A stretch of DNA of 62,451 nucleotides, filler included, from Squatina squatina (taxonomy: Eukaryota), in the NCBI GenBank assembly GCA_031763465.1. It is 3 parts of 2 records of this genome, joined end to end, with 100 filler letters (N's around TTAATTAATTAA, not from the genome) between each part and the next. Parts side by side here need not be neighbours in the genome. Positions count along the whole stretch, not along the records: positions 1 to 18,624 come from JARFOE010000189.1; 2 more parts are not named here. One strand, given 5' to 3'. Of this stretch, positions 1 through 61,881 are shown one piece after another (position 1 is the stretch's first letter; the number at the start of each line of letters is the position of its first letter). Both the position numbers and the translations under genes were made by a program. The notes beneath the pieces are model-generated. The model was not told the origin of the DNA. It searched no databases and worked only from the letters and a program-made list of their open reading frames with translations.

Positions 1-13
1 GATATCCTTCAGG

Positions 14-2145
14 TCACCTCTTCAGATTGCCTATGGAGACAATTTTAAGAGATTGCTTGTCATTTGGCAGATTAGTTCGTATTTCAGCAGTCCTTTCATT
101 AATAACTGAATGTATTTGAACAGGTTTTTTTCCAATTAGGTTGTAAACCAGGTCTTTGCTCAAACTTTCTCCCCTGTACCCTTCCCCTACTTGGGGTTGC
201 CATGCTTTCTTGGTCAATTTCTTTTCCTATTTGTCTCTCTTATTCTCTGATCGATCTTATGTACCTCATCTGGCATTTCTTGTTTTAAATCTAACTGTTG
301 CTGTCGAGTCAAGGAGTCAGAGAGTGTAGAGGCAATGAACAAGCCATGGGCAAGGGGTGTCTGCATCTCAACCCCATACATGAGATAACATGGGGTTCTG
401 GGGGACACTGTCCCTGGTGCAGATGTGGGCCCATTATTAAGTGATGGCTGCACTTCCGTTAGTAAGGTGGTCCACTTATTCTCCTGATTCTCAACAGTTT
501 GAACCGATAGCTTTTTCACTTCCTTATTTTTACATTCCACCAGTCCCGCTGATGGCGGATGACGTGGCGTGCATTGCTCTGACCCAATTTTCCTTTGTTC
601 ACAACAGTCTTTGAAGATCTTAGAAACAAAGGCTCCACCCTGATCGGAGTGTAGAATTTCAGCTACAGTAATAATGTCAGTATTAGCATCGACGAGCGCG
701 TTTTCCGAAAAAGTTTTTGTGGGGAGCAACCAGCAAAAGGAAGTGTGTCCATCGACACAGACGAGAACATGTCTGTATCCCTAAGATGGGGGAAGTGGTC
801 CAATGAGATCAAGGAAGAATTTTGTCATTGGTCAATAGGCTTCACCGAGGCTAATGGTGGTGGTTTAATAAGTGATGACTTATTGGTTAAATTGCATGGC
901 TCACAATTAGCCACGTATGTTTTACAGGCTTTAAGCATGCCTGGCCACCAATACAATGGAGTTAATTTACAGAATGTGGTTCTGGTGCCACAATGTGCTT
1001 GACCTATGCCCTCGTGAGCTTCTTTTACAAGCTGTTCTCGTTTGTGATACTTCTCGGTTTCCCTTGGGCAGCTCAACAAGTACAATACCAGTAGGGGTTT
1101 CTGAGTAAAAGTAATTTGATGGATATCCTGGTGGATTTTCTTTTGTTGGGTCTAATAGCTGAATCAGTTCCTCATCCTGATTAGCTGCCCTTTCTGCTCC
1201 AGTGATAACACTAATTCTGGCAAACCCCTCCTTAGGGGGTGTTATGCAGACCGATCCTTTTGCTTGTTCATCTGTAAGACTGTTGCCCTTCGAGTGCACT
1301 GTCCCAGTAGTATGCCCGTTTACATGTAGTGCCTGACAATTTTGTTTCTCCGTCCTCAAAAGGAGAATTTCTTCCCACAACGACTTGTGTTTTATAGATT
1401 TATTCTTATGATTGGTAAAGTTTGTTCAGTCCCAGAACACTCGGTCTTGGTTATATCCTCTTTTACAATAGTCGCTATCAGTGCAGATTAATGTGGGTTT
1501 AATTCGGTCTGCCTGTTCTAAAGCATACCGTAGTGCTGCTGCTTCAGCATATTGTGCTCTCTTCTGGCTAAGGGGTCTGGGCAGTAATTCTTCTGGATAA
1601 AAAGATTAGGAGTCTCGAAAGGTCCCTACTGCTACCCCCATCCCAGCTGAGGACTGCAGGGATGTCCCGGTTTTAATCATCATTGACGAGCCATCACAGG
1701 AAATGACTTGATTGCATTCTGTGAGTGGCTACACAGACGCTTGTTTGACTCCTTCCTTCATATCATCAAGCTCCATGATGGGGAGATGCTCTCAGTCCAT
1801 TTCTGAGGATAGAAATTTTAAAATGAGTGTAGGATCATTCAGGAACAATGCCCATTTATCATGTCGGATCTGGGTGGCTCTTTCTTCATCAGAGGCCATC
1901 CTCAGTACTGATCTCAAGTCAGGAATTTCAGTATAGATGGTAATGGGGTGTTCCCCTTGAAGGGTTCTTGCGTGATGAGGCATCGGACTACCATAGTCAT
2001 GACCCTTTCTTTTTTTGCGTGTCTTCTTTCAACATTGGAGAAGTTGTACAAATGGAACTGAACCGGTACAATGCTCTTTTCATTGTAAAAGACGGCAACT
2101 GCCACTTTAGGTGATGTTCTGAGGTGAACATTGAGGGGGACTTGT
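14..2145 (-). mobile_element. pol: Endogenous foamy-virus-like pol fragment, copy C (connection, RNase H, complete integrase to the pol stop)
   Basis: HHCC (AHEGIGQAHCG...YWWPGM...CEPC), core [60 protein letters not shown] (D,D,E retained), SLTRQQQLDL, and C-terminal domain WQPQVG...KIVSIGNLKR*. All match remembered foamy integrase (FFIDYIGPLPPSQGY, IHSDQGAAF, TPYHPQSSGKVERKN, TVSIDNLK). Confidence 0.93.
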
Positions 2146-2500
2146 TATAACCAACACCCTATTTCGTCAGAGAGACAAATACAAGACCTCATGGCAACAC
2201 CCTCGCCCCAGGCATTGGTACCTACTAGACTATGTCATCGTTCGAGCGAGGGACCGCAAGGATGTGTGCATCACCCGCACCATTACAGGAGCCAACGACT
2301 ACTGGACTGGCCACCGCCTAATCCACTATTATTTCCATTAACTTCATCCAAAAATGGCAGCGGCAACAGAAACGCTGCTGCAAGAAAATCAATGTCGAAG
2401 TACTCAAAGATCCCGTGAAGAAAGCCCTGCTCAGCCAACACCACACAACCAATCTGGCGATGCTCACTGAATCGAAGCCACAGAATGTCCACAATGCCTG
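2138..2500 (+). mobile_element. RTE-clade LINE fragment (APE endonuclease C-terminal part)
   Basis: Frame from 2138: GLVITNTLFRQRDKYKTSWQHPRPRHWYLLDYVIVRARDRKDVCITRTITGANDYWTGHRLI, typical of the RTE endonuclease (SWxHPR..HWHLIDY...TDHRL). Confidence 0.8.
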
Positions 2501-2600
2501 NNNNNNNNNNNNNNNNNNNNNNNNNNNNNNNNNNNNNNNNNNNNNNNNNNNNNNNNNNNNNNNNNNNNNNNNNNNNNNNNNNNNNNNNNNNNNNNNNNNN

Positions 2601-2690
2601 ACCCCTCTGTCTCTCTGCACTTGTTCCCATCCCCCTGCCACATTAGTTTAAATCCTCCCCGACAGCACTAGCAAACATTCCGCCAAGGAC
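2601..2690 (-). mobile_element. CR1 LINE fragment (end of ORF1 esterase-like region)
   Basis: Reverse strand reads ...FASAVGEDLN*MWQGDGN, like the CR1 ORF1 terminus. Confidence 0.55.
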
Positions 2691-3934
2691 AATTTTGCCA
2701 TTGATTCAGTAGACTTCACCAGAGCTAATGGTGGTGCATTAATAAGTGATGACTTATTTGTTAAATTGCACGACTCACAATTAGTCACGTATGTTTTACA
2801 TGCTTTAAGCATGCCTGGCCACCAATACACTGGAGTTAATTTGCAGAATGTGGTTCTGGTACCACAATGTGCTTGACCTATGTCCTCGTGAGCTTCTTTT
2901 ACAAGTTGGTCTCGTTTGTGACTCGGGAGTACATCTCGGTTTCCCTTGGGCAACTTAACTAGTACGATACCAGTAGGGGTTTCCGAGTATAGTACTTTGC
3001 TGGATATCCTGGTGGATTTTCTTTTGTAGGGTCTAATGGGTGAATCAGTTCCTCATTCTGACCAGCTGCCCTTTCTGCCCTAGTGATAACACTAATTTTG
3101 ACTGACCCCTCTTTAAGGGGTGGCATGTAGAATGAAAGTTTTGCTTGTTCGCCTGCAAGACTGTTGCCCTTTGAACGTACTGTTCCCGTGGTATGCCCGT
3201 TTACATGAATGACCTGACAATTTTGGTTCTCCGACCTCAAACAGAGAAGTTCTTTCCACAGCAACTTATGTTTTATAGATTTACCCTTCTGATTGGTAAA
3301 GTTTGTTTGTTCACAGAACACTAGGTCTTGGTTATATTCTCTTTTACAATAGTCGCTATCTATACAGATTAATGTGGGTTTAATAGGGTATGCTTTTTCT
3401 AAAGCATACTGTAGAGCTGCTGCTTCAACATATTGTGCTGTCTTATGGCCAAGAGATATGGACAGTAATTCTTCTGGTTAAAAAGAATAGGAGTCTTAAA
3501 GTCCCTACTACTGTCCCCATCTCAGCTGAGGACTGCTGGGACGTCCCTTTTTTAATCGTAAATGACTTAATGGTATTCTGTGAGTGGTCTCATAGGCGCT
3601 TGTTTGATTCCTTCCTCTTTATCATCATCCTCCATGATGGGGAGATGCTCTAAGTCCATTTCCAAGGATAGGAATTTAAAAATGAGTGTAGGATCATCCA
3701 GAAACTATGCCCATTTATCATATTGGATCTGGGGAGCTCTTTTTTCATCAGAGGCCATCCTCAGTACTGATCTCAAATCAGGAATTTCAGCACAGATGGT
3801 AATGGGGTGTTCCCCTTGAAGGGTTCTTGCCTTGATGAGGCATTGAACTACCATAGTCATGACCCTTTTTTTGTGTGCCTCCTTTCAACATTAGAGAAGT
3901 TATAAGAATGGAACTGAATGGGTGCAGTGTTCTT
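2691..3934 (-). mobile_element. pol: Endogenous foamy-virus-like pol fragment, copy B (connection, RNase H, integrase N-terminal HHCC domain)
   Basis: Nucleotide-level paralog of copies A and C. Peptides FTNQKGKSIKHKLLWK, HVNGH, and integrase zinc finger AHEDIGQAHCG...YWWPGM...CESC. Several stops and frameshifts. Confidence 0.9.
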
Positions 3935-4837
3935 TGGGATTGTCACAAAAAAGGGAGCTGCTGGTGATATTGTGCTCTGGAACCATTCAATGCGACACTC
4001 AGGAATTCTCCTGATTTCCCATGTGGTCAGTTCAGACCTGATGTGGCCTTAAAAGAAAATAGTAATGTTCTAGGAATTGGAGGTATGCTGGACTTCAGAA
4101 GAGAAAACCACGGGATGTGGGGGTCTTTTCAAAGCAGGGCAGTGTTCAGAATGTACAATCAGCAAGATCCCAAATATCGGAGTTGTGCAAGAATGTTTGA
4201 AGATTTAAAAACTAAACAACAAATAACCCCATTAAAATTCCAATTTGTGAATATGAACTTGGGTCTTTCCTAACTGGTTGTCCTCTTCAGCTGCATTCCA
4301 CTTTACGACCTTTTTGAAGCAGATGATGTTCAACCTGTTAGTTCAAATGCCACTCTGGATCAGGCTTCCTGGCTTCATGCTGAGGATGTGATTACTGGTT
4401 TTGCCGGTGACAAGCACATAGTTTAATAGCTCTCAGGAGCAGTCTACCTGAGAAGGTTCATTAATCAAGACAAGCCATTGAAGGCAATCGTCAGTTCTGC
4501 TTTCCACAGGATACTTTGACAAAGTGNNNNNNNNNNTTCTAAAGATATTGAATTTACTGGTAAATCAGGCAGGGAGGAGCTTATGCCCACAAGGGAACCT
4601 GCCTGATATTCCATTCGTTAACTTCAGTGTAAGGAAATTTGGGCAGACTCCTTATCATGCGATATCCCAGGCATTCCAATATACCCTAGTACAGAAACAG
4701 AAAAATCTGCCACATGGTCTTTCAGAATGAAGTGGATAGGATGTTCCATTTATTACTGTAATTGCTCTAGCATTTTAAAGTATTTCCTAGTTATTTTGAA
4801 GTTGTTAAAGCTCTTATTGTTTTATGGTCAGATGTGA
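3935..4837 (+). pseudogene. Decayed ORF of unknown family, abutting foamy pol copy B in the opposite orientation
   Basis: One frame of about 300 codons (crossing a 10-N gap) with 7 internal stops, versus about 19 expected at about 60% AT. All stops are one C>T away from Gln or Arg codons. Shares motifs with 39258-39692. Confidence 0.55.
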
Positions 4838-5149
4838 TTGCCTTATTGTAAGCTCCTATTAATAGGTCAAGTTGTCAAGTATTATCAAGATCTAAAAGCA
4901 TAAAAGTCACTACATTATATCCCAGAATTTAGGACTTTATTTTACTAGATTAAAATTAGCAGTTCAAATTATTCTTTTGTAGTGTAATAACCTAATAATT
5001 ACATCAAGATTTATAATGATTGGTGCATATGCCTTACTATTTTCCTGTCNNNNNNNNNNNNNNNNNNNNNNNNNNNNNNNNNNNNNNNNNNNNNNNNNNN
5101 NNNNNNNNNNNNNNNNNNNNNNNNNNNNNNNNNNNNNNNNNNNNNNNNN

Positions 5150-6721
5150 AGAATTATGTTTTATGGGTTTACCCTTATGATTGGTAAAGTTTGTTTGTTC
5201 CCAGAACACTAGAGTCTGGTTCTTTCCACTTTTACAATAGTCACTGTCTGTACAGATTAATGTGGGTTTAATAGAGTCTGCCTGTTTTAAAGCATACCGT
5301 AGTGCTGCTGCATCAGCATGTCGCGCTGTCTTATGGCCAAGGGGTATGGACAGTAATTCTTCTGGATAAAAAGAATAGGAGTCTCGAAAAGTCCCTCCTA
5401 CTATCCCATCCCAGCTGAGGATTGCTGGGATGTCCCTTTTTTAGTCGTCATTGACGACCCATCATAGTAAATGACTTGATGGTATTCTGTAAGTGGTCTG
5501 ATAGGCATTTGTTTGATCCCTTCCTCCGTATCATCATCCTTCATGATAGGGAGATGCTCTAAGTCCATTTCCGAGGATAGGAATTTAAAAATGAGTGTAG
5601 GATCATTCAGGAACGATGCCCATTTATCATATCGGATCTGGGTGGCTCTTTTTTCATCAGAGGCCATCCTCAGTACTGATCTCAAGTCAGAAATTTCAGT
5701 ATAGATGGTAATGGGGTGGTGTGCCTCTTGAAGGGTTCTTGCCTTGATGAGGCATTGGACTACCATAGTCATGACCCTTTCTTTTTTTGTGTGCCCCCTT
5801 TCAACATTGGAAAAGTTATAAGAATGGAACTGAACAGGTACAATGCTCTTTTCATTGCAAAAGAAGGCAACTGCCACTTTAGGTGATGTTCTGAGGTGAA
5901 TATTAAGGGGGACTTGTAAGTCTCTTTTTCTAGGTCTGTGGCCTTTTGTATCTCTCAGCATAATAGTTGCAGTATTGGATAATCATCTGGTGAAAATATA
6001 AATGGTCCTTTCGCTGCTTCGCCCACTCTAGCACATAAGGGAGTTGAGAGCTCGGCAACGGTCGGTGTAAAGGATCTAGCAAAATTCAGGAGTCCCAAAC
6101 TTGCTTGTAGGTTTTTCCAGAGTTTTAGGATATTAGATGTGGCTAATTTCTTTTTATAAGATTGAGTTAATCCTCTACCATTTCCAGTTATTCGTAGACC
6201 CAGAAAAATGGACCTCCTCCCTAACTAGTTAGACTTTTTTTGATGTTGATTAGGTGCCCAGCTGTGGTAAGTCTGGATAAAACACCATCAATGGCTTTGA
6301 AGTGATCTTGGAGATCGTTGTGTGAAAGATATATATCAATCACATAAGAGTTAATGTTGGGTATGTCTTTTAAAAGATCAATGCTCTGAGTGGAAAAGAG
6401 AATGGGGCTGTTTTGAAATCCCTGGGGCAATCTGGTCCAACAGTATTGACACCCATCAGGTCCAGTCATTGATGTTTTTGCCCAGTCAGACTCATCGATA
6501 GGATGTGACCAAAAGCCATTTGCTCGGTCAATACACGATTTATATCTCTCCCTCTTTATTCCAGAGAAAAGGGCTGTGGAATTCTGCTGTTGTGCAGTAT
6601 GCGGGGCCGTAACCTTATTTAAGGCTACGTAATCGATCACTAACCTCTACCGTCCATCTGGTTTGGCAACACCAAACAATGGTGAATTGGTTCTAGATCC
6701 TGTTTTAACAAGGGCACCCTG
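5150..6721 (-). mobile_element. pol: Endogenous foamy-virus-like pol fragment, copy A (RT, connection, RNase H), inactivated
   Basis: Translates to QGALVKTGSRTNSPLFGVAKPDGR*RLVIDYVALNK...NGFWSHPI...[18 protein letters not shown]...DLLKDIPNINSYVIDIYLSH...FLGLRITGNGRGLT...[10 protein letters not shown], then connection (WASFLNDP), RNase H YYDGS...SAGMG, SIPLGHKTA, ICTDSDY, FTNHKGKPIKH. This is colinear with remembered prototype foamy virus Pol ([55 protein letters not shown]). Stop at 6649-6647, frameshifts, and YVDD reads YVID (6335-6346). Confidence 0.93.
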
Positions 6722-7136
6722 GAGCCAAAATTGGCCTCCTTTAATGTCCCATTAGTACCTGCCCAGTTAAATTTCGTGGTGGGTCAGCAGGTGACGTCAT
6801 CAAGACGTGCGACGACCTGCCCCGCACAGTAACAACGTCCTTGGTGCTCCGTTTGCGTCCCGCGGGCAAAATTCACCCGCAGGAGGCAGCTGCAGCGCGG
6901 GGCAATTGCAGCAACAGGAGAACCTGTCACTGTGACGGGCCCCTTAAAGGGAAGGGCTTCTGCGCCTCTGGCCGCCATTTTTATTTATTGCCTGACTTCA
7001 TAGTCGACCGATAAATGGCGGCCCCTCGGCCGGATCGGGCCACCATTGCCTCGTCTGGCACGCCAACTGGCATGCCAGGCTGGTGGCTTGGTCAGCGGCG
7101 GCCCTGGTGGCCCAGGGTAGCATGTTCAGCATGGCC
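6722..7136. mobile_element. GC/CpG-rich non-autonomous DNA-transposon-like repeat truncating the pol 5' end
   Basis: Abrupt switch from AT-rich RT coding sequence to CpG-rich non-coding sequence starting GGAGCCAAAATTGG, similar to termini of other GC-rich inserts in the window. Confidence 0.5.
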
Positions 7137-7457
7137 NNNNNNNNNNNNNNNNNNNNNNNNNNNNNNNNNNNNNNNNNNNNNNNNNNNNNNNNNNNNNNNN
7201 NNNNNNNNNNNNNNNNNNNNNNNNNNNNNNNNNNNNTCGGGCTTGAAAGATCGCGACCTGAAATTCTTCCCCTCAATGTTATTACTTTGCCCACAAAAAT
7301 GGGTGTATGGAGGGCCAATTTCTCCTCCCCAGTATCTCTCTCAAACAAGTAAAATATAGCATGTTCAGATGCACAGTAAAGGTCTCTTTTCCGCCTCAGT
7401 CATATACCTCAGGCCATTCTCTGCTGCACCTATGTGACATTTAGCTTATTTTCTGCC

Positions 7458-16142: not shown

Positions 16143-16272
16143 CATAAGAAATCGGAGTAGGAATAGGCCATACGGTCTCGCAAGCCTGCTCCACCATTCA
16201 ATAAGATCATGGCTGATCTTCTACCTCACCTTCCTGTCCTATCCCCATATATTTTGATTCCCTTAGTGTCCC
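16143..16272 (-). mobile_element. CR1 LINE 3' end fragment
   Basis: cataagaaat..gagtaggaataggccat...ccattcaataagatcatggctgatc recurs at 33848, 47894, 57023 and 62400. Confidence 0.7.
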
Positions 16273-18668
16273 AAAAAATGAAAAGTTTACATAGAACATT
16301 TTCATTATGAATTAAGACAGTAATGGAAATATGAAAGTAAGGATAGAAGGTATGACTTTAACATAGCGACTGAATTATGTTTTGTGTGCTCTGGTCCAAT
16401 AATCACCACTCTCTAACCAGACTTCATCCGAAGACAGTATTTGACCTTGACTTCTTGAGTGTGGTGCCACAGGAGATTAACTTCTGTGTGTGCGTGCGTA
16501 TTGGAAATAACATAGCTGACCCATTGACATCTGAAGAAAACAGGTTAAGATTTTGCATGTAAGCGATTCAATAGTGGTGGTGGAATTGGTTGACCACTGT
16601 GTAGAAATAAATAGGATTTTATCGCAGCTAGTCAGAAGGAGCAAATACCTGCAGGATTAATTGGAATATGGAAAAACAAGTTTGATTCTAGATTGTACAC
16701 TGATGAAATTTCAGCTTATATTTATTCCCTGGAGAGGAAATAAGAACTTACCAGATACAGAAAGAAATGTGCATTCAAACGCATTTTATATATATATACA
16801 CAAAATGATTTTTTTACACAAAGAGTACGCTTTGTGCACATGTACACATAAGCAAACTGTTTGCAACTGAACTATAATGAGAATGGCCCTGAAATTGCGA
16901 TTGGAGGCTTCCTGCGTGCGGGTGCCTCCAATCACAAAAAAAGTTACGTACTTTCCTAAGGGTCCTTGATCCACGCGAGTTTGCAATGTTCAGCTCCCCC
17001 GAGTTGGAGATTCGGAGCGGGGCCCTCCAGTTTCCCGGGCAAGTTGAGCGAAGAGGCTGGNNNNNNNNNNNNNNNNNNNNNNNNNNNNNNNNNNNNNNNN
17101 NNNNNNNNNNNNNNNNNNNNNNNNNNNNNNNNNNNNNNNNNNNNNNNNNNNNNNNNNNNNGCTAAAACTGATACATTAGTAAGATGAAGAGCTGAATTAT
17201 TGTAATTTGGTTTTCAATTATAGTGCTGTTCACTTTGTTTACTTGCATTTTGATTGGTTGATGACTATAATAAAGGCTTGAACATCTTGACAGTGCATGA
17301 AGCATCCTGTCAACAGTGAAAATCAAAACCAAATCTTTCCCTGGCAGTCTGTTGTTAGTGTCAGAACACACGACATGTTGTGGCTGTTGCCAATTTTCTT
17401 GTTTTATTTATGTAATTAGAATTCTATCACAAAGAGGTTTTTTTTGTAAAGATAAAATCACTTATTTTTGTTGAAACGACAAGTGTATATTATTAAATAT
17501 ACATCTATTATTGTGCTTTTCAAATGGTCACTGAATCAAACTTTATAGAATGGATGTGTTCCAAAATGGTAAAATCAAAAATCAACAACAATTATACAAA
17601 CTACATAATCTATTACTAAACTGAAAATAAATCACACTGAATGATTAAATGGATCTCAAAGCAGATTTATTACTCTTTACTAAGGTAGCATAATTTCTCT
17701 TCAAAAGTGACATTGAAAAAGGACTGCATGCATCTGCTTACTACTCATGTAAACAATATTCTAATCAACAATCATTTATCTCTGCTGATTGAACTTAGAT
17801 TTATGTTGACTTGGACTATACAAGGAAGTACTTTATATCACATTAGATAAACGCATAACTGAAAATATATTGAAATAACATAGAGTGCCAAGCTAAAAAT
17901 GTCCATAGGTCATATAAAATTACAGTTCACTATTCTTAAGTAACAAATCATAATGATTAATTACTGGCTCTGAAATCACACCGTGGTGCAAATGTACAAG
18001 CTTTTAATATAGCTGCCTGAAATTCCACTCTCTGCAACTTTAGTTGAGGTGTTTAGCCATTAAAAGTAATCCCACAGTGTAAACTCAGGGCCACCTGAGT
18101 TGTATGTAAGGCATTGTTGCTGTTGCTTGTGAGTTATGAGTTTGTAGTAACATTTTCAGCAGTGTAATTTTTTTGGGCTCTTCAATCCATCCATCACTAC
18201 AGCCTCCCTGAGGCTGCCAGCTTTGTGTTGCTTTGTGCTGAATTGTGGGCAATTTTGTAGTGTGGGCCTGCGCCCATCAAGACCTGGATTGAGATTAACC
18301 AAACTCATTTTATGTAGGAGTATTATAGTCAGCATAGGAAACAAACTGGGCTGTATTCATAATAAGTGCCCCTTGTGCCACCCATTTCTCAGGACATGAA
18401 TCTTTAACAATTTTGAAATGAATCCTTAAGTTCTCTGCTGCTGTTTTGATATTCTCTGTGCATTTATATCAATTAAAAAAACAATATTGTAAATTATTTT
18501 TACAATATTAAAATCACGGTAAGATTAAACATACATTACATCGTGGATTCATCAATATGTTCGAGGGAATAAGTAAATAACAGTAAATACATGATTTGCT
18601 AGAGCACATGATGCATCTTAAGAANNNNNNNNNNNNNNNNNNNNNNNNNNNNNNNNNNNNNNNNNNNN

Positions 18669-18680
18669 TTAATTAATTAA
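18669..18680. other. Artificial six-frame stop linker TTAATTAATTAA inside a scaffold gap
   Basis: 44 N + 12 bp + 44 N = exactly 100 bp; identical construct at 45665-45676. Confidence 0.95.
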
Positions 18681-20440
18681 NNNNNNNNNNNNNNNNNNNN
18701 NNNNNNNNNNNNNNNNNNNNNNNNCCGTCCAGTTTTATTCTTATTGTTGTTCCTAGCGGATAGCTACAACTGAGTGGCTGCCGTCTGCCTGGCTCTCATT
18801 CCAAGTTCAAATCAGTGCTTAAAGGTTTGGATCTGTCAGGTTTGTTAGAATACATTCTTGTGAAGATTGTGAATGATTTTTACAGATGAAGTGAATTGCT
18901 CAAATTTGCTATGAAAACTGAAAATAAAAATTTTATTTTTCCAGCGAATGAATTATGTTCTATCTGTTAGCAGTTCCCACAATCTTGAAATACTTTTCCA
19001 TGGTGCAGCATCTGTTCATGTTTCTGTGGGTGTAGCTTCTCACAAGATTAGTCTTATATGTCTGCAAAACAACCGAATGTTTGGGGGAGGTGTGGTTGCC
19101 CGACTCATATCACTACCATTCAGCTTGTCAAATATGATACTTGATTTATTTAAGATGAATTGGTATCCAAACAAAACTGCTCTGTGTCAAAGCTTTGACA
19201 TAGGTCTGGTTCATAGGTTTACAAATTGACATAATAGTATGGGGAAGGTGGAATATTTTGGAAGACAGCCAGTTTAGCCTTTGCATGTGCAAGACTTGAA
19301 TTAATTCAGACTCTGCTATGAAATGGTGAACAGTTTACTTTCATGTGCCTGCATTGGATGCATTCTCAGTAAAATGAAAGCTACTGGAGATGTAATCAAA
19401 CCAAAGGGACTAATATCCCATGAGTGTACTTTAAGTATCTCCTTACATTAGATATTTCTCCTTGAGCTGTGGATATGACTAAAATACATGTGTTTGAGCA
19501 AAATAAAATTTGTGCATATCTTTTGGGGATACTTATTGCAAAGAGGATCATATTACAACATTTGAAAAGTATGGTAAATTGCCTCTCAAAGCATGCATTG
19601 TGCTGCAGCACCTTATCCTATTTGTCTGCAGTGGCATTGATATATAGTTCCCCGATTCTGCAATTATGGCCAATTTAAACCATGGGATATCAGTGCAAAC
19701 AGCGTCCCTGAAAACACAGATTAGGGCAGACTGTTTACGTATTAGAAAACTGTTAGTTAAATATTGAAATGCCCAATCATACTCTAAAGATTTGAAGATT
19801 GCCCTCGCTATTTTAGAAAAGTAATTTCTAAATAGTGTACTTTACTATATTCTATTCTCTCATGATTATTGGCAGCTATTTCAAAGGAAATGTCAAGAGG
19901 ATCAACCTATGAAAAGAAATGAAAGGGATGGTAAATGTAGCCAGCATATGGTGCAATGTGTTTGAGTAACAGCTTGTGTCCCAACGTGGCAAGATTTAGA
20001 TTTATTCCACCAAGTTTTAGATCTCAACTTCACTTCGCAGGGAGCTGCCAAGTGGTCAGCCACTTAACTTTAGTGACAACACTTTGTTTTGGTTGTTTAT
20101 TTTGTAATATGCTCGAAATGGTATGGGGCAAGTGAATGTCTTATTTGTGTGTACCTGAGAACACAAAATAGGACCAACAGAGAAAGGGTTAACATGAAAG
20201 CAGGAAATCCTATAATTTTAGTAAGGAGGGGATTTCTAGATAATGGCCAGGATTTCTTGTCCACCCTCCACTGATTAATAAGCAGATGCAAATGGAAAAT
20301 GCATCCTCCAATATATTTCCTGCATTTCGCACCATTGCAACACTAGATGCCTGCGATGCTTGTTGATACCCAGCATTCAGCATTACCATGGCACCAGAGG
20401 GAGGCTCTCATACGAAACAAAGTTTTTTATTTGTTCTAGG

Positions 20441-20954: not shown

Positions 20955-23232
20955 NNNNNNNNNNNNNNNNNNNNNNNNNNNNNNNNNNNNNNNNNNNNNN
21001 NNNNNNNNNNNNNNNNNNNNNNNNNNNNNNNNNNNNNNNNNNNNNNNNNNNNNNTCTGTTTATACCTTTATTCTAATGCACAGCTAAATGCAAACAAAAT
21101 ATTGTTTTTGGGGGGTTTTATGAAGATTATTACCACTACAGATGGTGTTTTAATATTACATCATCTGAACCTCTTTGTGTATCTCTCCAGATGATGTCGC
21201 TGCCATCTTCAATATCTCCTAAATGGCATTAACTTCATGTGGCTGTCATGGTCACAAATGACTTTGACAGAATAGGTCAAATTTGCATTGTAAGAAGGAG
21301 GGAAAGCCCATCTGGTTCCAATGTTATCACACCACATAAAAAATTGGGTTTATAGCACAGCTATATTTTCTGTTGTATGAAGTTGCCTGTAATCTCCAGG
21401 TGGCAATAGATTCTAAAATTCGGAGTGCCTCACTAAATAACAAGACAAATTGAATAATACTTATTAAATCCATATATATATTCAGAAATAGCAAATTAAC
21501 ATACATTAGTGATAAAGAGAAGAGGGTGAATGAATGGTTTATTTTCACAAATATCTACTTTAATGCTCAACGTTGTTGTATTTGTAAGTTGGTGCCATTC
21601 GGAGCCTTTAGAACTTTGATTAGCTTGCGTACTTTCCAACTCTTGGTCCTTAGCCTTGCAGGTTACGGCACNNNNNNNNNNCTTTGTCCTTTTGGTCATG
21701 ACAATTGAAGTGATCCGATTCCAATAATTCCCAATAATAAAGGGATAAAAAGAATAAGAACAATCACAGGTGCTTTATGAATGTATAGCAGTCCTTGCAA
21801 AAGTATAGAATTTTGGTAAGGCAAGAGCTACGGAAATGCCTCATCCATATCACATGATTGTTTTACTAGTAAGCATTTAATAAATAAAGGTGACTAGTCA
21901 GGACTTGGTGATAATGTAATAAACTGCATTAACAGAATACTAAAACTGAAGTATCGTATTAAGTTCTTCATTGGCTATTANNNNNNNNNNTTAGTTAGTC
22001 TTGGTACTAATACATTGTACTCAGTTGATTTAGTATCCTACCATTATGAGGTGGTTCTGCTGAGTGGTGTGGCTCAGGTGAAAAAAGTATAATGATCTAA
22101 ACATAGGTAATAATCTTTGACTGGCACTGTGGTATTGTAAGGTTATATTTTTTGTGAAAACTATGTAATAAAATGGATTGTAATTGTTATTGATCATAGA
22201 TTGTGTAACATTGTGTAACATTGCAACACTACTCCAATATGTGCTTTCGTATGCAGCTGATGGATATAATTGCTATCAGTTATGCATTTAATAATACTTG
22301 TAAGCATGCAGCTATAAACTTAAATACTGCTTTACACTGGAACATCTGCCACGGTGTGTAAANNNNNNNNNNAACTGGAATTTTTATAGCAGCACATACT
22401 CACTGCCCCGGTCATTAAAGGAATGCAGCGTCTTCATATCATGTGTTCTGCCCACCTATTTGTTTGCAAAGGATTGGCCAACGGGGACAGGGACACAGAA
22501 AGTGATCTGCTGCTACATGCTTTGGGAAAGTATGGGAGCTGATTGAGATTTGCCCTCAGGACAACCTGGAATATGAAATCGGTCACATACACATTCTTGA
22601 TGATGGAGTATGTAAATACTGAAGCCAAATAGCAGCACAATATCAGATATCTACTTAGCTGCTAGCCTCTGTGTTAACTACAAAAGCAGGATCAAGAGAC
22701 TGTATGATGTAAAGGGCTGGGTATAGGTTGAGAAAGCTCGATACATAGGCCTGGATTTTTTTTATAAACTGCCCAAGATCAACTGATATGGCAGCAGAAG
22801 AAAAAAGAAAATAGGACAGGGAGGCCTAACTCTGAATCCCTGCCCCTCAGAGTGCTGCCCAAAATCTTCGGTCAACCCGCACCCCCTGGCCCCAACAGGG
22901 AACTCAACCACCCATCCTGTGACCACTCTGTTGCAGTTGTGACAGAGCAGAGCAAGGACAGAGAACTTGGCTAATTTTCATGCCTGGGTAGTGTCCGCTG
23001 GAGGCGTTTCCAGGGCACTGAGCGTATTTTTGTGGCCGGCGGTGCTGCTCACATCTCCCCGGACATTCATGGGCTGTTTTGCGGGGGTGCCCAGAGGATA
23101 TGCCTCCGCGGGCCGGCGCGGCGAGAATATCGGCAGCGCATGACCACCGTGCGCACCGCCACGTGTGTCACCCGGCAGGGTTTTCATCTCGGGAAACAGC
23201 CATGGCGCCTGGGGTTAGCAGCGACAGCAAGT

Positions 23233-23762
23233 GATTCTATAGACTTTGGAGCAGTTCCTACAGATTGGAGGGTGGAAAATGTAAACCCACTATTTAAAAA
23301 AGGAGGGAGAGAAAAAACAGGGAATTATAGACCAGTTAGCCTGACATCAGTAGTGGGGAAAATGCTAGAATCTATTATAAAAGATGTAATAACAGAACAC
23401 TTGGAAAGCATTAACGGGATTGGACAAAGTCAGCATGGGTTTATGAANNNNNNNNNNNNNNNNNNNNNNNNNNNNNNNNNNNNNNNNNNNNNNNNNNNNN
23501 NNNNNNNNNNNNNNNNNNNNNNNNNNNNNNNNNNNNNNNNNNNNNNNCGCAGCAAATTGTTACGATCTGGAATGCACTGCCTGAAAGGGTGTTGGAAGCA
23601 GATTCAACAGGAAATTGGATAAATACTTGAAGGGGAAATATTTCCAGAGCTATGGGGAAAGGGCAGAGGTGTGGGACTAATTGGATAATTCTTTCAAAGA
23701 GCTGGCACAGGCATGATATGCCGAATCGTCTTCTTCTGTGCTCTATCATTCTATGATTCTAC
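23233..23762 (+). mobile_element. CR1 LINE: RT N-terminal fragment (23233-23446), gap, then 3' end (23548-23762)
   Basis: VPTDWRVENVNPLFKKGGREKTGNYRPVSLTSVVGKMLESII...QSQHGFM; the tail ends in the (ATTCTATG)-type repeat typical of CR1. Confidence 0.9.
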
Positions 23763-33475: not shown

Positions 33476-36400
33476 CTGGTCACATATGTAACAGAATACT
33501 GCACATAAAAAAAGAAATGGTAAGATACATCTTCATGAACTCACAAGGACAGCTAAGAATTAATTGTACATATACAATTGCTTTAAAGTGTGATCCCAAC
33601 CTTTGAGCAACTGCACAGGTGCTTTCTTATATATATGCAGTTACTTCAATGCAGTGTTGTGAACTTCAGTGTTGCCCTGAAGTGTAAACTGGGCAAATTC
33701 AGAATGCCAATAGAGATGATATATTGTGGAACCAATAGGCAGATAATCAAGTTTGCCAACAGCAAGGGACCACTCAGTGTTAACTATTATGAAAAGCATC
33801 ATAATTAATATATAAAAGTACACAGAACTACAGATTACTGCTGCCAAATAAGAACATAAGAATTAGGAGCAGGAGTAGGCCATTCAGCCCCTCGAGCCNN
33901 NNNNNNNNNNNNNNNNNNNNNNNNNNNNNNNNNNNNNNNNNNNNNNNNNNNNNNNNNNNNNNNNNNNNNNNNNNNNNNNNNNNNNNNNNNNNNNNNNNGG
34001 CGGGGGGGGGGGGGGGTGTGGTGGGGAGAAGGAGATAGAGAGAGAAAGGTTAGAGTCACACATCAGGTGCAGGAAGTGTGTGAGGAAGATCACAGTTACA
34101 ATGGTGGGTGGAAAACTGATATGCAGTAACTATAGTAACTTTTTGGTACATTTACAATCCAAAAGGATGTGTCTAAGAAGGCATTGTACTTTGACAGAGA
34201 TAATTTAATGTGAGTAATTGTGTCACCGGCCCTTCATTAATTATTCTATAAACTCTCTTCTTCCTAGCTGGTGGAAGACAAAGGATTTTGCTCTGATCCA
34301 TAATCATGTCTCGAATTAATAATCAGTAGAAACTGATCATTGTTTTCCTGCTGTGTGATATAAATTTATACGGCTTATTGAATAAGTTATGCAAATCATT
34401 GCAACCTCTCATTTTCTTCAGTTGCTTTGCATTTTATTGATTCTTGCCCAGCATCTTTCAGTTCCGACTGACGAATGGATATTCGTAAATCTCCTATTAC
34501 TTTGCACCATAGATTCAGTTTGAGCCAGCCTGATTTTGAAAAGACAGAACTGCACAAACTACCCTGTACCACAAGGTGGAACTATAGCTACACTGTGGTT
34601 GGGAGATTATTTGGGTTCTCGAGTGACGAACATCCAATAGTCTGCTGTTTTGCCATGAAAAAGCTCAGCTAAATATACAGAATGAGGTCATGTTTATGGG
34701 CTCACTAAAGCTTCCATTTTCTGTTGCAAGGCATTGCAATTTTATCATGCAAGGGTAGATTTGTTCTTGTCCAACCTTAAGGAACAGGCAGCTCAATAAA
34801 GAGAAAGAAAAGGTATCCTCATCTCTGTGAAGGAGTAATGTTATTTTATAGTTGACCTGGCCATTTTACCTCTATCCCAGGTGCACCCGCCTCTCTCCAC
34901 CCTGCTTCAGGCCCAGGTAAGATTGGCAGAGCCTATTTATTATGTCCATTACTCAATCATGTGATATTGGGGTGACAGGCTCTCACTGAAGGTGGATGGG
35001 CACATACAGCTACTGTCTACCTAACTTGTCTTGNNNNNNNNNNNNNNNNNNNNNNNNNNNNNNNNNNNNNNNNNNNNNNNNNNNNNNNNNNNNNNNNNNN
35101 NNNNNNNNNNNNNNNNNNNNNNNNNNNNNNNNNAATAGCATTTTAATGACTGTTTTCCCTGAATATATATTCAACCAATTAAGGATATGTTTTGTTTACA
35201 AAGTGATTCTGTATAAGGTCATTGTATAACTTTACTGTGTGTAAAATGCAAGTTCATAGCAAAATGAAATTCCTACAAAGTGTAATATATTCTTTATAGT
35301 ATATCTGGGTATATTTTCTTCCATTTGTTGTTAGCAAAGGGATCAGTGGGAGTATAAAATGAGTTTCTGTTTCACTAAAATTAGTGATGGAAAAAATATA
35401 CCTCAGGAAAAAAACTATCTGTATTTGCACAAAATGTAAACTTTTAGGTCATTATGTATTTAGTTTTTTTTAGTGTGTTTAAACAAAAATGGCCTGAATC
35501 TAATGCCTTTTGACTTTTCCCATAACCCTTATATATGCAATCGCAAATCACAAGACTTTCTATATTTAGATCATGTGAGAGCTGGCAGGAGCTTCAGCCT
35601 TGACCTGGTGCATGGAACTCTCCATCTATATCACATTCCAGAATTCTGGGGAAACATTACTAATGGCTACAACACGCAGCAGCAAGCTCCACAATGAATA
35701 CACAAGTGAATTTAGGGACAAATAACTTTTATAACAGATGGCATTTTTCAATAGGATTGTTGCAGGGGAATCAGTCAGAACTTTGATATGAGATAAATGG
35801 CTGTGCCGACAGACATATGTGATCATGCAACATATCTGGAGTGTATTTACTCAATCTTTTCCCGGAAATGAACACTAAGAAATTCTCTGCCTGTTTGTAG
35901 TCTCTTTATTCAAAGTATATTGACAGCTGTGTGTTCTCTATCCAAACCCCGCTGGTTGAAATTTTGCTTTGAGCAGATTTTTTTCTTGTGTAACTTCTCA
36001 GTCAATACCCCTAGTTTCTACAGATGGAACGCATCTTTTGTTGGATTCGTTGTTTCGACTGAATTATGTACTGTTATCATCAGTAAAGTACTCTTATTTA
36101 TATCTATACTTTAGCTGTCATGAAAAAGATACCAAACTATGGTCCACTAGTTTAAGCAATGCGGAACATTAATCTCCAAAGTAGGGGACCGTAAGTTCAA
36201 GTTTCAACTTTAACTGTTATTTGAACTCATCTGCTTTTATTCAGTATCAGTGAGGATTATGTGTGTGTTTCTGGGCTGCCATGATATTGGTCTCTACTCG
36301 GCTGTGTTGTGTCATGTCTTTCATTTCTAAAACTACAGAATATTGTAATGAGCATGACTGTAAATTCTGGCTATGCACAGATGTAAATTCTGCTGTTCAG

Positions 36401-50522: not shown

Positions 50523-53500
50523 TTACAAGCTCTAGCTTCCCCTACCTCTTTGTTCTGTTGTAGGAACTGGCTACTGTGATTCCTCAATTAACTGGTTGTG
50601 TTCCTAATGTGGCTTGGAGAAAAATTGACTGTTCTCCAGGATGGGTTATGCTGCTGTGTGCTGCACTACTTCACGGTATAACTGGCACAACTTCCCCAAT
50701 CAATACACAAGGCATTCAAAGGTTAAGATTCAATCTCCCAACCATATAGCCAGGAGCAAAATAATCTACTATTAACAGCTCTATTGTCACTAAAAACTGC
50801 CATGATAACATCACTGTGATTTTGGTACTGTGCAAAACTTAATCTGGCAATGAGTTTGAGGTGAGCTGAAAGACTCACTAGCTTCTATGAGGCATCGGCA
50901 TGTTTATACCATAATTTCCAATCCATAATTTATTTTTCTCTGCTACCTTTCCAGCTTGTTGTAACACTTTCCTATTCCATTGACTGACATCATTGATAAA
51001 CCATAACTGTGCTCGATTCCACTTTAGGATTCATTTTTCTCAGGTTAAAAAGTTTTAAAGTGAAAAACAGTTTTGGGGATTTTATGTCAGATGGGGTCAG
51101 ATTTACCCCATTCATATGCAAGTGTTAATCTATGTGAAATGTCATGTGTAACTGCACATTTTGCATACAGTTATTTTACCTTGATTTGGTATCAGGAAAT
51201 TTTGTGCACTGTCAGAACTGAGATCCAAATCATTATATGGACCGTAAATTAATGAGATACACACTAAGTGTGCATTACTGACCATGGGCAGAAAGGAAAA
51301 TGTCAAGTAAAGGAGCAAGAGACAAAAAAGATATTCTCTGATGGCAGAGACCATGAAACAGGGCAACATTTCCAAACCAATAAACTTCAAGTTAAAATGG
51401 CGCGAGGAGTGGAAAGAAGTCATAAAACGCTAAGCTCTATCTACAAACAAGTTGAACAGTGCAGGCAGAGTATATGGATGTTACACATCAAGCGCTATTC
51501 AAGGTCACAGGATGAAGCTTAAATATCCCAAGACCACCAGATGATGGTAAAGGAGAATGTTGCCCAATTGTTTGCTCCAGAAATTTTGACGGGGAGGGTT
51601 TGGTTGTGAGGACATAGCTTCAAAAGGCACCTGAAAGGAAATTGGCAGCCAGCAAGTTCACATGGTTCATAATCTTGTTTGGGATATTCTGCATTTTGAT
51701 AAACTTTAGTGATAAAGTATATGCTTTTTTTCTTTTGAAGCCATCCATACACAACAAATACACTGTATTAAAATTGCCTTCTTTATTCCACTACATCATT
51801 CACTGTCATGCTGAAGGCCAAATGGTAAATGCAGACCTGTAAATTTAGCTACAAGTTCCATCACCAATAATGCAATGTTATATGCATTCTGTCCAAGTAC
51901 TGAAGTGGCCTATAAGGTGAACTGATCTATGCAGACAAACTTACATGTTCCATTAGATACTTGAAAAAGACAAGAGTTTGTCTAAATGCAACAAAGTCAC
52001 AGTCAACTTTCAAAATATAACATAATCCTCATATGGGACTCAAAGAAACGATTGTCCATGCTGGCTATACTATAATCCATAGTCACAATTGGCCACGGGT
52101 CACTTTAAGGAACTGCTGTAAGTCCTGGCAACATTGCAAATAGTAATTGGCTTCTTCTTCACAGACGTGCTGGGATCTACACAAGAATTCAGTAGCTCCT
52201 ATACAGGTCCACATACCTCCAGTGTGAAAGACAATGTCTCCTCCAAATCCTTCCCATCTATAGCCAGGAGCCTTGATTTAAAGTAGCTCTGGAGAGGATG
52301 AGCTGGACCGCAACATGCAGTGGAACCTGAAGAAATATGGATGTGGAAGATGATGACGAAGATTATGATAGTCCCCTTGATTCTGATTCAATATACTCCG
52401 AAACATCCATTAGAGAAGAGTCATGTGTTCAGCATTACGTGGTCAAAATACATCCAATTTGGGCCAGGATACAAGAAGCAGCCGGAAAGACAAAGAGGTC
52501 GAGGGCTAAAAGTTTCTGGAATCCTGAAAAAAGATATCCGTAGTACCTTGCAAATTCAGAATGAACACAAGGAGAAAAGTTCTAATTCTGTTGCTGTCAT
52601 TCAAAGACAAGCATGGATCAATTAAGCAACAGTGCGAATAAAATCTCATTAGACTGGCTGCTATCGTTTAGGGCATTCAATCTGCATTGTTGTTTAACAT
52701 GCCAGAGTAAGGCTTTATGAAATTTCGNNNNNNNNNNNNNNNNNNNNNNNNNNNNNNNNNNNNNNNNNNNNNNNNNNNNNNNNNNNNNNNNNNNNNNNNN
52801 NNNNNNNNNNNNNNNNNNNNNNNNNNNNNNNNNNNNNNNNNNNNNNNNNNNNNNNNNNNNNNNNNNNNNNNNNNNNNNNNNNNNNNNNNNNNNNNNNNNN
52901 NNNNNNNNNNNNNNNNNNNNNNNNNNNNNNNNNNNNNNNNNNNTTCAACAGCACCTTCAGAACTAAGGGACGATGCACAATGCTGAGAAGCATTACCCAT
53001 CAGTAAAAGTAAATACACCTGTTGAAATCGGAGCAGGAACCAACTATATTAATACTATTCATATATTTGCTAAAATCAGTTTGCATATTTAAAAATATTC
53101 TGGCCCATGCTTCAACATCCTCCTCTGCTTTCTTCCTCTGTCCTGTCTGAATCTTATCAAATGAAAAAAGCTTTACACTGTAGTTTGATTCTTGTGCAAA
53201 TGAATACATATTTATGCACACCATTAATACCTGGTTCACAAGCACATTCCCAATGAACTCATAAAACCAGAGATAAAATAGCACAAGGCCGAGAAACATG
53301 GCTGGTTATACCCCTAAATAATGTATGCTTGAGTTGCCAGAACAACTATACATAATTCTATATGTGCCCAAATATGCCAAAATTTTGCTGTTCAAAAATG
53401 CCTTTGCATTTGCATATATACACAAAGGATGAAAAACAGTCCATTCTCCACACATCATCAATCAATGTAAGCCCCTCGGATGCTCAACATTTAAAAAAGA

Positions 53501-53907
53501 GGCGTACCATAAAAATCCCATGCTGAGGAAGCATCTATTCCCTGATTGTAAGGGTGTGACTCAGATGAGTTTGGGCAGTCTCTATTTAATTCCTTATGTG
53601 CATCGCTCCACAGTGCAACTGCCCAATTTAGCACGAAATTGACAATTTCATTCAAAAATGGTATGGAAAATGTACGGGGTCATGTTAGTGCAATGTTGGC
53701 AAGGTTCTCTCCTGAGGCTGTGCCTCATTGTTTGAGTAGAATAGAGGGAAGCTTTAGTCAGCATCTAACTGTACTATACCTAGAACTGGAACTGCTTGTT
53801 TCATAAAAGAAAAGCCAAAAAGAAAATTGCACACTGGTAATGCCACTGAAGGAAAATGCTGACATTTCATTAATCTTACTACTACTATTAACTGAGTAAG
53901 TTGCTTA

Positions 53908-54135
<228 letters not shown>

Positions 54136-54630
54136 CTATAGTAAACTAGCAATAAACATAATGCCATAGAAAGCTCATTCACACAGTTCTAATAATGTTT
54201 AGCTGTGGGATTTATTGCATCTGCCCATAATTCATTGGACAGCATTGTTGCCTTTGCTCCACATTACAGTTATGGAGCAAGAATGCATCATCATCATTGA
54301 CTAGCCCTTATCTGACTGTCTGCTGCCTTTTTCCTACTTAGTACTCTGTGGGAGTTGAAATTCTTTTCAGTAAAAAGACCTAACCATAACAAAAGCATTA
54401 CACCCGTTTAATAGTGCATTAAAAGATTCGCAACTCTCTCCCTTTTTTCCCTGAAGATATGGACTCTTGTTGGAGATATTGGCAGTTCTCCAATACTTCA
54501 CCCACGTGGCCATTCTTTATGCATCAGCCTNNNNNNNNNNNNNNNNNNNNNNNNNNNNNNNNNNNNNNNNNNNNNNNNNNNNNNNNNNNNNNNNNNNNNN
54601 NNNNNNNNNNNNNNNNNNNNNNNNNNNNNN

Positions 54631-55915
<1,285 letters not shown>

Positions 55916-57022: not shown

Positions 57023-57437
57023 GGAACATAGGAATAGGAGGAGGCCATTCAGCCCCTCGAGCCTGTTCTGCCATTCAATGATATCATGGCTGATCTGCAA
57101 CCTAACTCCATCTAACCAAGTTTGCCCCATATCTCTTAATACCTTTGGTTAACAGAAAGCTATCAATCTCAGATTTAAAATGAACAATTGGCCTAGCACC
57201 AATTGCCATTGACGATCGAGTGTCCCAAACTTCTACCTCCCTTTGTGTGTAGAGGTGTTTCCTAATTTCACACCTGAAAGGTCTGGCTCTAATTTTTAAA
57301 CTGTACCTCCTAGTCCTGGAATCCCCAACCAGCAGAAATAGTTTCTCTATCTCTACCCTATCTGTTCCTCTTAATATCTTGAAAATTTTGATCAGATCAC
57401 CCACTAACCTTCTAAACTCTCGGGAATACAACTCTAA
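57023..57437 (-). mobile_element. CR1 LINE 3' end
   Basis: LYSREFRRLVGDLIKIFKILRGTDRVEIEKLF...SRTRRYSLKIRARPFR...FKSEIDSFL. Confidence 0.88.
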
Positions 57438-59210: not shown

Positions 59211-61881
59211 TGATGTAACTCGATGTGAAGTGATGCTTTCCTGTCAGGTAAATAGCTATCAGAGTTATTCTGTTATGGAACCACCAAATGAGAATTTCCG
59301 TGGTTAGATGACACAGAAATGACAAACCATGCCTCCTGCATGTAGAAATAATAATTTAACACTAGCTATCAATCTTCTCTAATGAAATATCAAATGCTAA
59401 CACTGACTCCTGGAATAAGTGGATAGGATACTTCATGTTCTGATTCAACAAAGAGTTGAGTTATTTTTTCACCCAACTGCTCAGAGAAGTATCCAACTGA
59501 GTGAGGGACCAGAGGCTGAAAGGTNNNNNNNNNNNNNNNNNNNNNNNNNNNNNNNNNNNNNNNNNNNNNNNNNNNNNNNNNNNNNNNNNNNNNNNNNNNN
59601 NNNNNNNNNNNNNNNNNNNNNNNNCGTCTGGAATACATTTTGACTAGCTGGAGCGAAGCCAAACCAATATGGAGAGAACTATTTTGTAGTAAACCTACCC
59701 TGTAATCATTAAATTACATTCTCAAATTAGGTACCCAGTTCTGCTCTTTGTGCAAACCATACTTCACATCTTTAACAGGCTGATTCTGTCTTACATGGAA
59801 CTTTGCAAGATAGTTCTTCCTGTTGCAGCTGAAAGAAGTAGGATGTGTGTTCTTTGTGGTCTACCAGACTTGATTTGAACTCTGTTATAAATGAAAGCTG
59901 GACACTATTCCCTTTCAACGCATTTCATACTGAAGGTAATGGAACATCATCGATGCATTATCTTCCTTCCTCCTCTCCACCTGCCTCGCCTTTCAATTAC
60001 TTTTTTCTCTCACACTCCACTAGACCTCACACTATAAACCATTGTGCAGGAGCCTGAGAGGATGTTGTCTTCATCGGGCCTGTGTTAAATAATGGTGATG
60101 GGTGTACGCTCTGGAGTTAGCACAATCAATACAAGCCTTGGGCAAGGATGGAGATTAGAAATAAAACATTTTCCTCACAGGATAGTGGACGTGTGTACTT
60201 GATTTGGGCTCAATTGGCACATTTAAAATCCATTGAGAAGAGGACCAAGGGTTAGAGAGATATTAATAGCACACTGATATTATTTAGGGGACAGAACAGC
60301 AGGAACTCAGCAGCCTAGAAATTGATTCGCGTCGGCCTGCCAGTACGAACTGGGTGACGGGACCGACTCCTGTGCCGGAATGGGTAAGCCCAAGGCACAC
60401 CCAATATTGGGCCTCGTTTATATAAGACTGGCCAGCTATAGATGTCCCCAGGCACCTCACTGCCGAATTGAAGCTGGATTTCAGTCTGCTGCATCATCAC
60501 GAGCAACCCGCCGGTCGGTCCTGGGAGGGGAACAGGCGGCGATTGGGATGGGATGGTGGGGTGGAGCAATCGGGAGGAAAGGTGGCGANNNNNNNNNNNN
60601 NNNNNNNNNNNNNNNNNNNNNNNNNNNNNNNNNNNNNNNNNNNNNNNNNNNNNNNNNNNNNNNNNNNNNNNNNNNNNNNNNNNNNNNNATGATCTCATTG
60701 AATGGCGGAGCAGGCTCGAGGGGCCGAATGGCCTACTCCTGTTCCTATTTCTTATGGTCCTCTGGTCTAAAAGCAGACAATAACTAAATAATCTGGCCGA
60801 TTTCCGGGCGAGGAATCCCGTCCCTGGTGTTGCAAACGCAAAGCTCCACAGCGAGTCGGGAAACCCGAACTTCCGGGGATTTTCATTGTATCCCGGGCTC
60901 TCCCCGCACCGTGTGGGGGGTGAGATCCGGCAAAATCCAGCCCAATCTATCCGTAGGCATGCAATCAAGCCCGTCCACTGATTGATAACCCTCGACCAGG
61001 TCCGCCTCTAAGTCAGCACTGCCATAGAGGTAAATAGACCCAGCTCTTTGCGTCTATCTGAGTGGCCAGGAATCATTCTCGTAGCTCTCCCTCTGAACCT
61101 TCTCCAAGGCCTTTCTATCACCCACCATGTGAGCCGACCAAAACTGGGCCCAGTACTCCAGATGTGAATGTGAGTGCCGTTGGTTTAAAACCTTCAGTGT
61201 TTGATCTCAATTTAGATGAAGACTATTACATCAATTGCTCATTTATACTAAACAGAGGAACAGGCCACACTGCTCCAAATTACTTACGGAGCAATAATTG
61301 TTTCAGTGCTTGCAGGAAGCAACTAATAGAGTTGAGTAAGTTAGCAAAGGTTCAGATACCCATTTGGGTTCAAATTAGCCCAAAACACATCAAACCTAAA
61401 CCGAGAACCGGGCCCAATACTATCGTTCCGTTACTTATAAGGGCTGGAAATGTTGTGGTTTCTTTTTAAACTGTTCACCATTTCCAATTGAANNNNNNNN
61501 NNNNNNNNNNNNNNNNNNNNNNNNNNNNNNNNNNNNNNNNNNNNNNNNNNNNNNNNNNNNNNNNNNNNNNNNNNNNNNNNNNNNNNNNNNNNACCTTAAA
61601 ATGCCTTGCAATCATTGTGTGGGACTTGGAACGGCCATTTTGAAGATTTTTTCTGATCATGGCTCACCGTTTGAAAATTACAAAAATCGGGTTATTCAAC
61701 CATGTTGAATTGGGGATGGATAGAAGAAGGAAGGCGACCTTGACTGTATGTAATGTTTGGGAGTTTGCAAGCTTTGTGGGGGGTGAAAGCAGAAGCCGCA
61801 CAAGCAAACATGAATATTTTATCAAAGCAGAACAGTCTGTTATTTTGAGTTTATGTCTCTGATGTTCGAATGACATCAAAT

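Follow-up and report, generated by a model that had tools for sequence, protein, structure and literature searches.

Foamy elements are already known from cartilaginous fish. CmiFLERV of the elephant shark was reported as basal, with only pol detected (PMC5512871), and 293 elements and ERV-Spuma.0-Sca, the latter clustering with ray-finned-fish elements, were reported from the small-spotted catshark (PMC10699275). By its title, a further study describes an endogenous foamy virus of cartilaginous fish that roots to the vertebrate foamy viruses (Wang, Chen, Cui 2023; J Virol 97:e0181622, PMC9972966); it is cited in PMC10581153, PMC12386078, PMC11468914, and PMC12323578. The literature compared also took in PMC6955096, PMC8227577, and bioRxiv 2020.12.18.423569. 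Because 2,843 clade III reverse transcriptase (RT) loci are counted in 6 chondrichthyan genomes in PMC11089739, foamy-related endogenous retroviruses (ERVs) are not rare in chondrichthyans. The DNA analysed here, called the window, is a 62,451-nucleotide stretch, filler included, from a genome assembly of Squatina squatina (GCA_031763465.1), and its main subject is the minus-strand pol matter at positions 14–6721. An earlier note, made from the sequence alone, had taken this matter for a single element of a rare, foamy-virus-like kind and perhaps for an unreported lineage or host record. The publications above do not bear out the rarity and lend no support to an unreported host record; the window adds an example, not a new kind of thing.

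Layout and arrangement of the pol copies

Self-comparison resolved the pol matter into three partial, overlapping copies (A, B, and C) in place of the single element of the earlier note. Each copy occupies one contig, and unrelated DNA also intervenes between them.

14–2145, minus strand: copy A of pol, with tether, RNase H, and the N-terminal, core, and C-terminal domains of integrase; residues ~460–1121 of prototype foamy virus (PFV) Pol; stop at 14–16
2501–2600, no strand: assembly gap of 100 N, separating the contigs of copies A and B
2684–3935, minus strand: copy B of pol, broken, with tether, RNase H, and the integrase N-terminal domain; PFV Pol residues ~500–864
5050–5149, no strand: assembly gap of 100 N, separating the contigs of copies B and C
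5151–6721, minus strand: copy C of pol, with RT lacking its N-terminus, thumb, tether, and the first half of RNase H; PFV Pol residues 188–701; ends at the gap

The three overlapping copies explain why the span is more than double the length of pol that is matched. They are 87.1–90.0% identical in pairs over 671–696 shared columns, with Kimura two-parameter distances of 0.109–0.144. RT is present only in copy C, and the integrase core and C-terminus only in copy A, so that the order RT, tether, RNase H, integrase is established by the overlap of copies C and A. All six Pol motifs listed in the earlier note were located in minus-strand frames between 14 and 6721. Copy A is disrupted by several stops and frameshifts, copy B is truncated ahead of the integrase core by unrelated DNA at 2601–2683, and copy C is disrupted by stops and frameshifts, its RT active-site motif being damaged. 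None of the copies would make a working enzyme today.

When identity and arrangement are taken jointly, the region probably holds three broken, overlapping partial pol copies of one foamy family, which would be separate shark insertions juxtaposed by the assembly. The window contains 45 N runs, with a median piece of ~1 kb, and its 100-N gaps hide unknown lengths, because a 2,737-base stretch that includes two such gaps lacks ~230 residues of the host gene CNNM1. The copies share a strand and are ordered by their pol end points, as would be expected had they been placed along a single reference provirus. In the three-way alignment, six of the seven gap events change the frame, and in every case the sequence is missing from a single copy (one of the six lies at the uncertain edge of copy B), so that their common ancestor had an open frame there.

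Several observations weigh against separate insertions brought together by scaffolding. The spacing of the copies is oddly regular (~1.86–1.92 kb), the starts of copies A and B fall within ~70 bases of each other on pol, and among the 44 pieces of the window only one other neighbouring contig pair overlaps (by a 50-base repeat), so that the pile-up is not general. The ratio of nonsynonymous to synonymous substitution rates (dN/dS) between copies was 0.45–0.58; purifying selection, apparent from upper 95% limits below 1 (0.81–0.99), disappeared against a neutral control, in which the median was 0.66–0.72 and 9–19% of the simulations were as low as observed. The excess of third-position changes was not significant (44/45/63, p 0.11). 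Because the dN/dS values lie within the neutral control, these data do not distinguish separate viral insertions from early duplication.

The same virus could therefore lie here in truly adjacent copies, formed at an insertion hot spot or when one provirus was duplicated early on, in tandem or locally, and then eroded by other repeats. The common strand, the spacing of ~1.9 kb, the similar starts of copies A and B, and a divergence compatible with neutrality would all suit such a history, whereas the copies have no frame-changing gap and no flank in common, and each is confined to its own contig. Furthermore, repeated fragments of another endogenous foamy virus were ascribed to assembly error in the part of PMC10581153 that treats them, although those were >90% identical. 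We regard true adjacency as possible but somewhat unlikely, and placement by scaffolding is favoured over it, though not overwhelmingly.

Under separate insertion, the RNA of an ancestral foamy-type virus would have been reverse-transcribed and integrated by a foamy-type integrase into the shark germ line. The virus would then have spread to many loci, where its copies, free of selection, decayed and were interrupted by other repeats. Copies A, B, and C would likely be separate ancient germ-line insertions of one foamy-virus family that the assembly likely put side by side. With two shark rates (PMC10699275 and PMC4422223), the copy distances translate into 109–144 or 248–327 million years, which are rough upper bounds.

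A search of sequencing runs listed no RNA run and four DNA runs, all from a single sample of organism A, at a word share of 0.05. In these runs, 868–876 contigs fell on window positions 1–2500, partly on the flank that is likely a long interspersed nuclear element (LINE); 25–35 contigs overlapped position 978, the longest pieces differing by 14–20%, and 17–20 contigs carried on with different letters at 2147. The element family is multi-copy in at least one other sample, and that sample seems to be without the exact copy of the window.

Foamy identity of the Pol fragments

A Pfam scan of 13 minus-strand peptides from 14–6721 gave matches above the cut-off for RVT_1 (E 8e-13), RT_RNaseH, i.e., the tether (E 2e-6), RNase_H (E 6e-10), and Integrase_H2C2 (E 3e-16 and 2e-15), whereas rve (E 1e-5) and SH3_11 (E 0.19) fell under it. 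Together, these matches lie far beyond chance. The integrase C-terminus of copy A, for which Pfam gave only the SH3_11 value above, is 31% identical to PFV over 65 residues (pairwise E 2e-4). The integrase zinc domain is of the HHCC type with an upstream extension; a three-residue gap in this domain is restricted to PFV and feline foamy virus (FFV) and is uninformative on kinship. A dual RNase H, with tether and second RNase H in the order RT–tether–RNase H–integrase, is given in part of PMC7947760 as a trait of Retroviridae as opposed to Ty3/Gypsy, and this arrangement was found here.

Similarity to solved structures (PDB) pointed to foamy viruses in each domain. Specifically, the RT frame scored 136 bits with foamy protease–RT, 50 with Ty3, and 26 with HIV, the integrase core scored 105 bits with foamy integrase and 31 with HIV, and RNase H and the tether matched foamy proteins only (5/5 matches each). 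The best match among 1.84 billion representative proteins was the FFV Pol (46%, HMMER), and none was near-identical. With the RT frame as query, none of 205 candidates in a word-based protein search matched at E 1e-10, although the full HMMER search did find relatives; a metagenome scan gave 115 pattern matches and no relatives.

Phylogenetic trees were built from single frames, with a stop read as X, and the group labels in them (teleost, Gypsy, NYNRIN-/loki-like, etc.) were inferred from host names, protein names, and Pfam content. In the RT tree (all 47 rows kept), the window fell in a starred 16-row clade (support 97/86) with the mammalian foamy viruses, the Pleurodeles newt, the Scyliorhinus catshark, and two unnamed proteins; the teleost rows formed a separate starred clade, and the Callorhinchus row lay just outside the clade of the window. 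A second RT tree supported the foamy grouping at 96/90. The catshark row was padded past its matching part in the RT trees, which makes its place there weak. In the integrase tree (33 rows), the window joined the foamy viruses in a starred 12-row clade (100/97); six references without a usable match, five of them teleost-type, were left out, and the set held no coelacanth sequence. The tether tree was largely unresolved, with 1 of 12 inner branches starred and 11 of 25 references left out. Approximately unbiased (AU) tests rejected grouping of the window with Gypsy (RT p 0.033, integrase p 0.002), with lokiretrovirus-like (NYNRIN-like) proteins (RT p 0.018, integrase p 0.0005), and with gamma/epsilon-like proteins (integrase p 0.012). 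These scores, trees, and tests bear out the preference of the earlier note for spumaretroviral Pol over Ty3/Gypsy or orthoretroviruses, and the RT and integrase phylogenies that it had proposed as a check fall within foamy clades, not outside them.

We conclude with high confidence that the pol copies derive from a foamy virus. By their sequences, both RT and integrase place the element in Spumaretrovirinae, on the branch leading to the tetrapod foamy viruses, and to the extent visible in Pol it works as a foamy virus does. The integrase core is 40–46% identical to those of foamy viruses, and of six teleost-type proteins, five had no match to it at E 1 and the sixth matched at E 0.37. As described in PMC7947760, tetrapod and coelacanth foamy integrases form group II and fish foamy integrases a separate group III; on these values, the integrase of the window is of the tetrapod-foamy type (group II), not the teleost type.

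Some points tell against this placement. AU tests on RT did not reject grouping with the teleost foamy-like rows (p 0.083) or with the row of the chimaera Callorhinchus (p 0.098), and the traits of gag, protease, env, the accessory genes, and the internal promoter that mark foamy viruses lie outside what the copies show. A test uniting both chondrichthyan rows gave p 0.041, a weak result that involves the padded catshark row; when that row was trimmed, joining it to the window was not rejected (p 0.235).

The two unrejected groupings, together with the catshark element reported to cluster with ray-finned-fish elements (PMC10699275, in part), are what would be expected if the window belonged to the ray-finned-fish or elephant-shark foamy-like lineages (of the FLERV or ERV-Spuma.0-Sca type) rather than to the tetrapod-leading branch. 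Nevertheless, the free RT trees hold the teleost rows in their own clade, though these rows take their labels from host names and not from named elements, and both the integrase identities and the group II/III separation cited above speak against it, making such a lineage very improbable. A lokiretrovirus, orthoretrovirus, or Ty3/Gypsy element that resembles foamy Pol by chance is scarcely credible: most of the 150 RT matches listed are Gypsy-like or NYNRIN-like proteins, and lokiretroviruses also have the tether and RNase H layout and join foamy viruses in RNase H trees (PMC7947760, in part), but foamy proteins score two to four times higher in RT and integrase, RNase H and the tether match foamy proteins only, and each of the five AU tests of such groupings had p ≤0.033. 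In particular, the integrase related to CGIN1/NYNRIN and the RT sister to other retroviruses that define lokiretroviruses were both rejected, with labels taken from NYNRIN-like names, and assignment to Ty3/Gypsy (Metaviridae) failed in both AU tests and on the dual RNase H. Finally, some minus-strand frames are open across 140–190 codons, as would suit co-option as a host gene or contamination by an exogenous virus. Such an origin has a negligible chance, since all three copies carry stops and frameshifts, pol is joined directly to other repeats inside contigs, and the DNA sample of organism A contains many diverged relatives.

With the foamy identity of the copies preferred, one foamy hallmark within pol can be considered. 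According to PMC4070436, the central polypurine tract of foamy viruses is a 9-mer inside the integrase gene. It was present in 16/16 foamy-virus loci compared, and no match within one mismatch was found anywhere in the pol copies. One purine run is positioned similarly, and it is one of 6 runs of at least 10 purines in copy A.

165–175, minus strand: 11-purine run that begins at the codon position of the foamy central polypurine tract; not the exact 9-mer

Flanking DNA, absent genes, and host

The absence of protease, gag, env, and long terminal repeats (LTRs) remarked on in the earlier note holds across the window, and accessory genes are absent too. Fifty non-pol open reading frames from 16 foamy-virus loci were compared with the whole window, and the best match had E 0.019; the N-terminal parts of three relatives gave none better than E 0.03. 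No LTR-like direct repeat was found in the window, the pattern of a tRNA primer site had 0 matches in it where 2 were expected by chance, and window scans found no tRNA and no Rfam family. The env gene would lie left of position 1. The flanks of the copies did not recur elsewhere in the window except in one 27-base match, and no flank was common to the copies.

2146–2500, plus strand: unrelated repeat adjoining copy A, probably part of a LINE endonuclease (closest named families Exo_endo_phos, 0.92, and Exo_endo_phos_2, 0.90); Pfam scan without a match
3936–5049, no strand: DNA upstream of copy B, without a Pfam family or similarity to the RT region of copy C (score 26; shuffles mean 25.5, maximum 36)
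6721–7328, no strand: GC-rich stretch with 16-nucleotide inverted arms (81%), one arm lying where the RT similarity stops; possibly an insertion like a miniature inverted-repeat transposable element, although two-copy short repeats of this kind can arise by chance
16143–16250, 33835–33898, 42266–42435, 47879–48041, 57023–57196, 60689–60759, and 62402–62451, both orientations: seven sites of a dispersed repeat found by self-comparison, 70–91% alike, likely the 3' ends of LINEs or short interspersed nuclear elements
22975–23445: LINE RT fragment (RVT_1, E 2e-4)
18625–18724 and 45621–45720: filler joins, non-genomic, each a 12-base palindromic AT linker with 44 N on either side
47412–55911, minus strand: metal-transporter gene CNNM1, matched at four exons, with the middle exons lost in 100-N gaps

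Among the best 120 of 3,460 matches, a 187-residue piece of CNNM1 was 93% identical to Heterodontus francisci, 87–91% to other sharks, 82–89% to rays, 80% to Callorhinchus, and no more than 80% to bony vertebrates. These values agree with the cartilaginous-fish host proposed in the earlier note and place the host among elasmobranchs, likely as a shark. The pol copies are not intronic and lie ~40 kb downstream of CNNM1 along the joined stretch, the parts of which need not be genomic neighbours.

Comparison with known relatives

The dating of retroviruses relies chiefly on foamy viruses as its clock, and the age and order of the special foamy traits are set by lineages diverging below the tetrapod viruses. 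Another shark family at this place in the tree adds a useful data point, yet one made of dead fragments in a fragmented assembly and with published precedents.

The nearest relative in the RT trees is P0002, a 1687-residue, apparently intact protein from a 10,956-base Logan contig, which was the sister of the window (89/90; starred, 96/88) although the two are only 41% identical in RT and 37% in integrase. Sisterhood was not rejected for integrase either (p 0.31); in the free integrase tree, the window was nearer to the mammalian foamy clade than P0002 was (95/68). A one-residue RT insertion common to the window, P0002, and the Scyliorhinus protein occurred in 7/112 scorable proteins (188 examined), and a four-residue integrase insertion common to the window and P0002 was absent in five other references. 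The predicted P0002 chain joins a 520-residue Gag-like N-terminal part to an RVP-type protease and Pol, unlike the true foamy viruses. The Gag-like part matched no Pfam family and gave only Atlas leads under 0.9; it holds a Y-x-L-R motif, which has a role in chromatin binding and is also found in newt foamy Gag. Mammalian foamy viruses express Pol separately from Gag, through a spliced mRNA (PMC5035957).

By analogy with P0002, the element might belong to a shark-associated stem foamy lineage that combined a foamy integrase with Gag, an ordinary protease, and Pol in one in-frame chain, a proposal we consider unlikely. If it were true, the separate spliced Pol and the A9 protease of mammalian foamy viruses would have arisen later, and sequencing data would still contain intact viruses of that stem. 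Natural full-length copies with a fused Gag-Pol would show when separate Pol expression, the most distinctive foamy trait, arose.

A second Logan contig (10,295 bases) encodes P0328, an intact Pol of 1156 residues with a Spuma A9 protease, 52% identical to that of FFV, which branches just below the mammalian foamy viruses.

Among cartilaginous fish, P0018 of Scyliorhinus torazame (GCB66461.1) comes from a shark host, shares the RT insertion, and joins the window in the tether tree (77/78). Its identity of 43% in RT and 31% in the tether points to a different family or a much decayed relative. In the gene model of P0018, a PRDM-type PR domain is combined with a foamy-like RT and tether; this is probably a prediction artefact, although a real fusion is possible. 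The Callorhinchus protein P0012 is 40% identical and lies outside the starred RT clade of the window. CmiFLERV and ERV-Spuma.0-Sca, compared by description only, are foamy-like ERVs of cartilaginous fish, as the window element is, but were reported as basal and as grouping with ray-finned-fish elements, respectively. The element of the 2023 study, likened here by its title only, comes from the same host class, and the root position in that title agrees with the RT and integrase trees of the window. It reportedly covers sharks and rays, and the window element is possibly that family itself.

The mammalian foamy viruses (PFV, FFV, and the simian, bovine, and equine foamy viruses, SFV, BFV, and EFV) are 44–48% identical to the window in RT and 40–46% in the integrase core. 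The window differs from them in being endogenous and dead, in falling outside their clade, in having one more residue in RT and four more in the integrase core, and in lacking the exact central polypurine 9-mer. Common to both are the tether plus RNase H and the HHCC zinc domain with its upstream extension, and the integrase C-terminus may be SH3_11-like as well.

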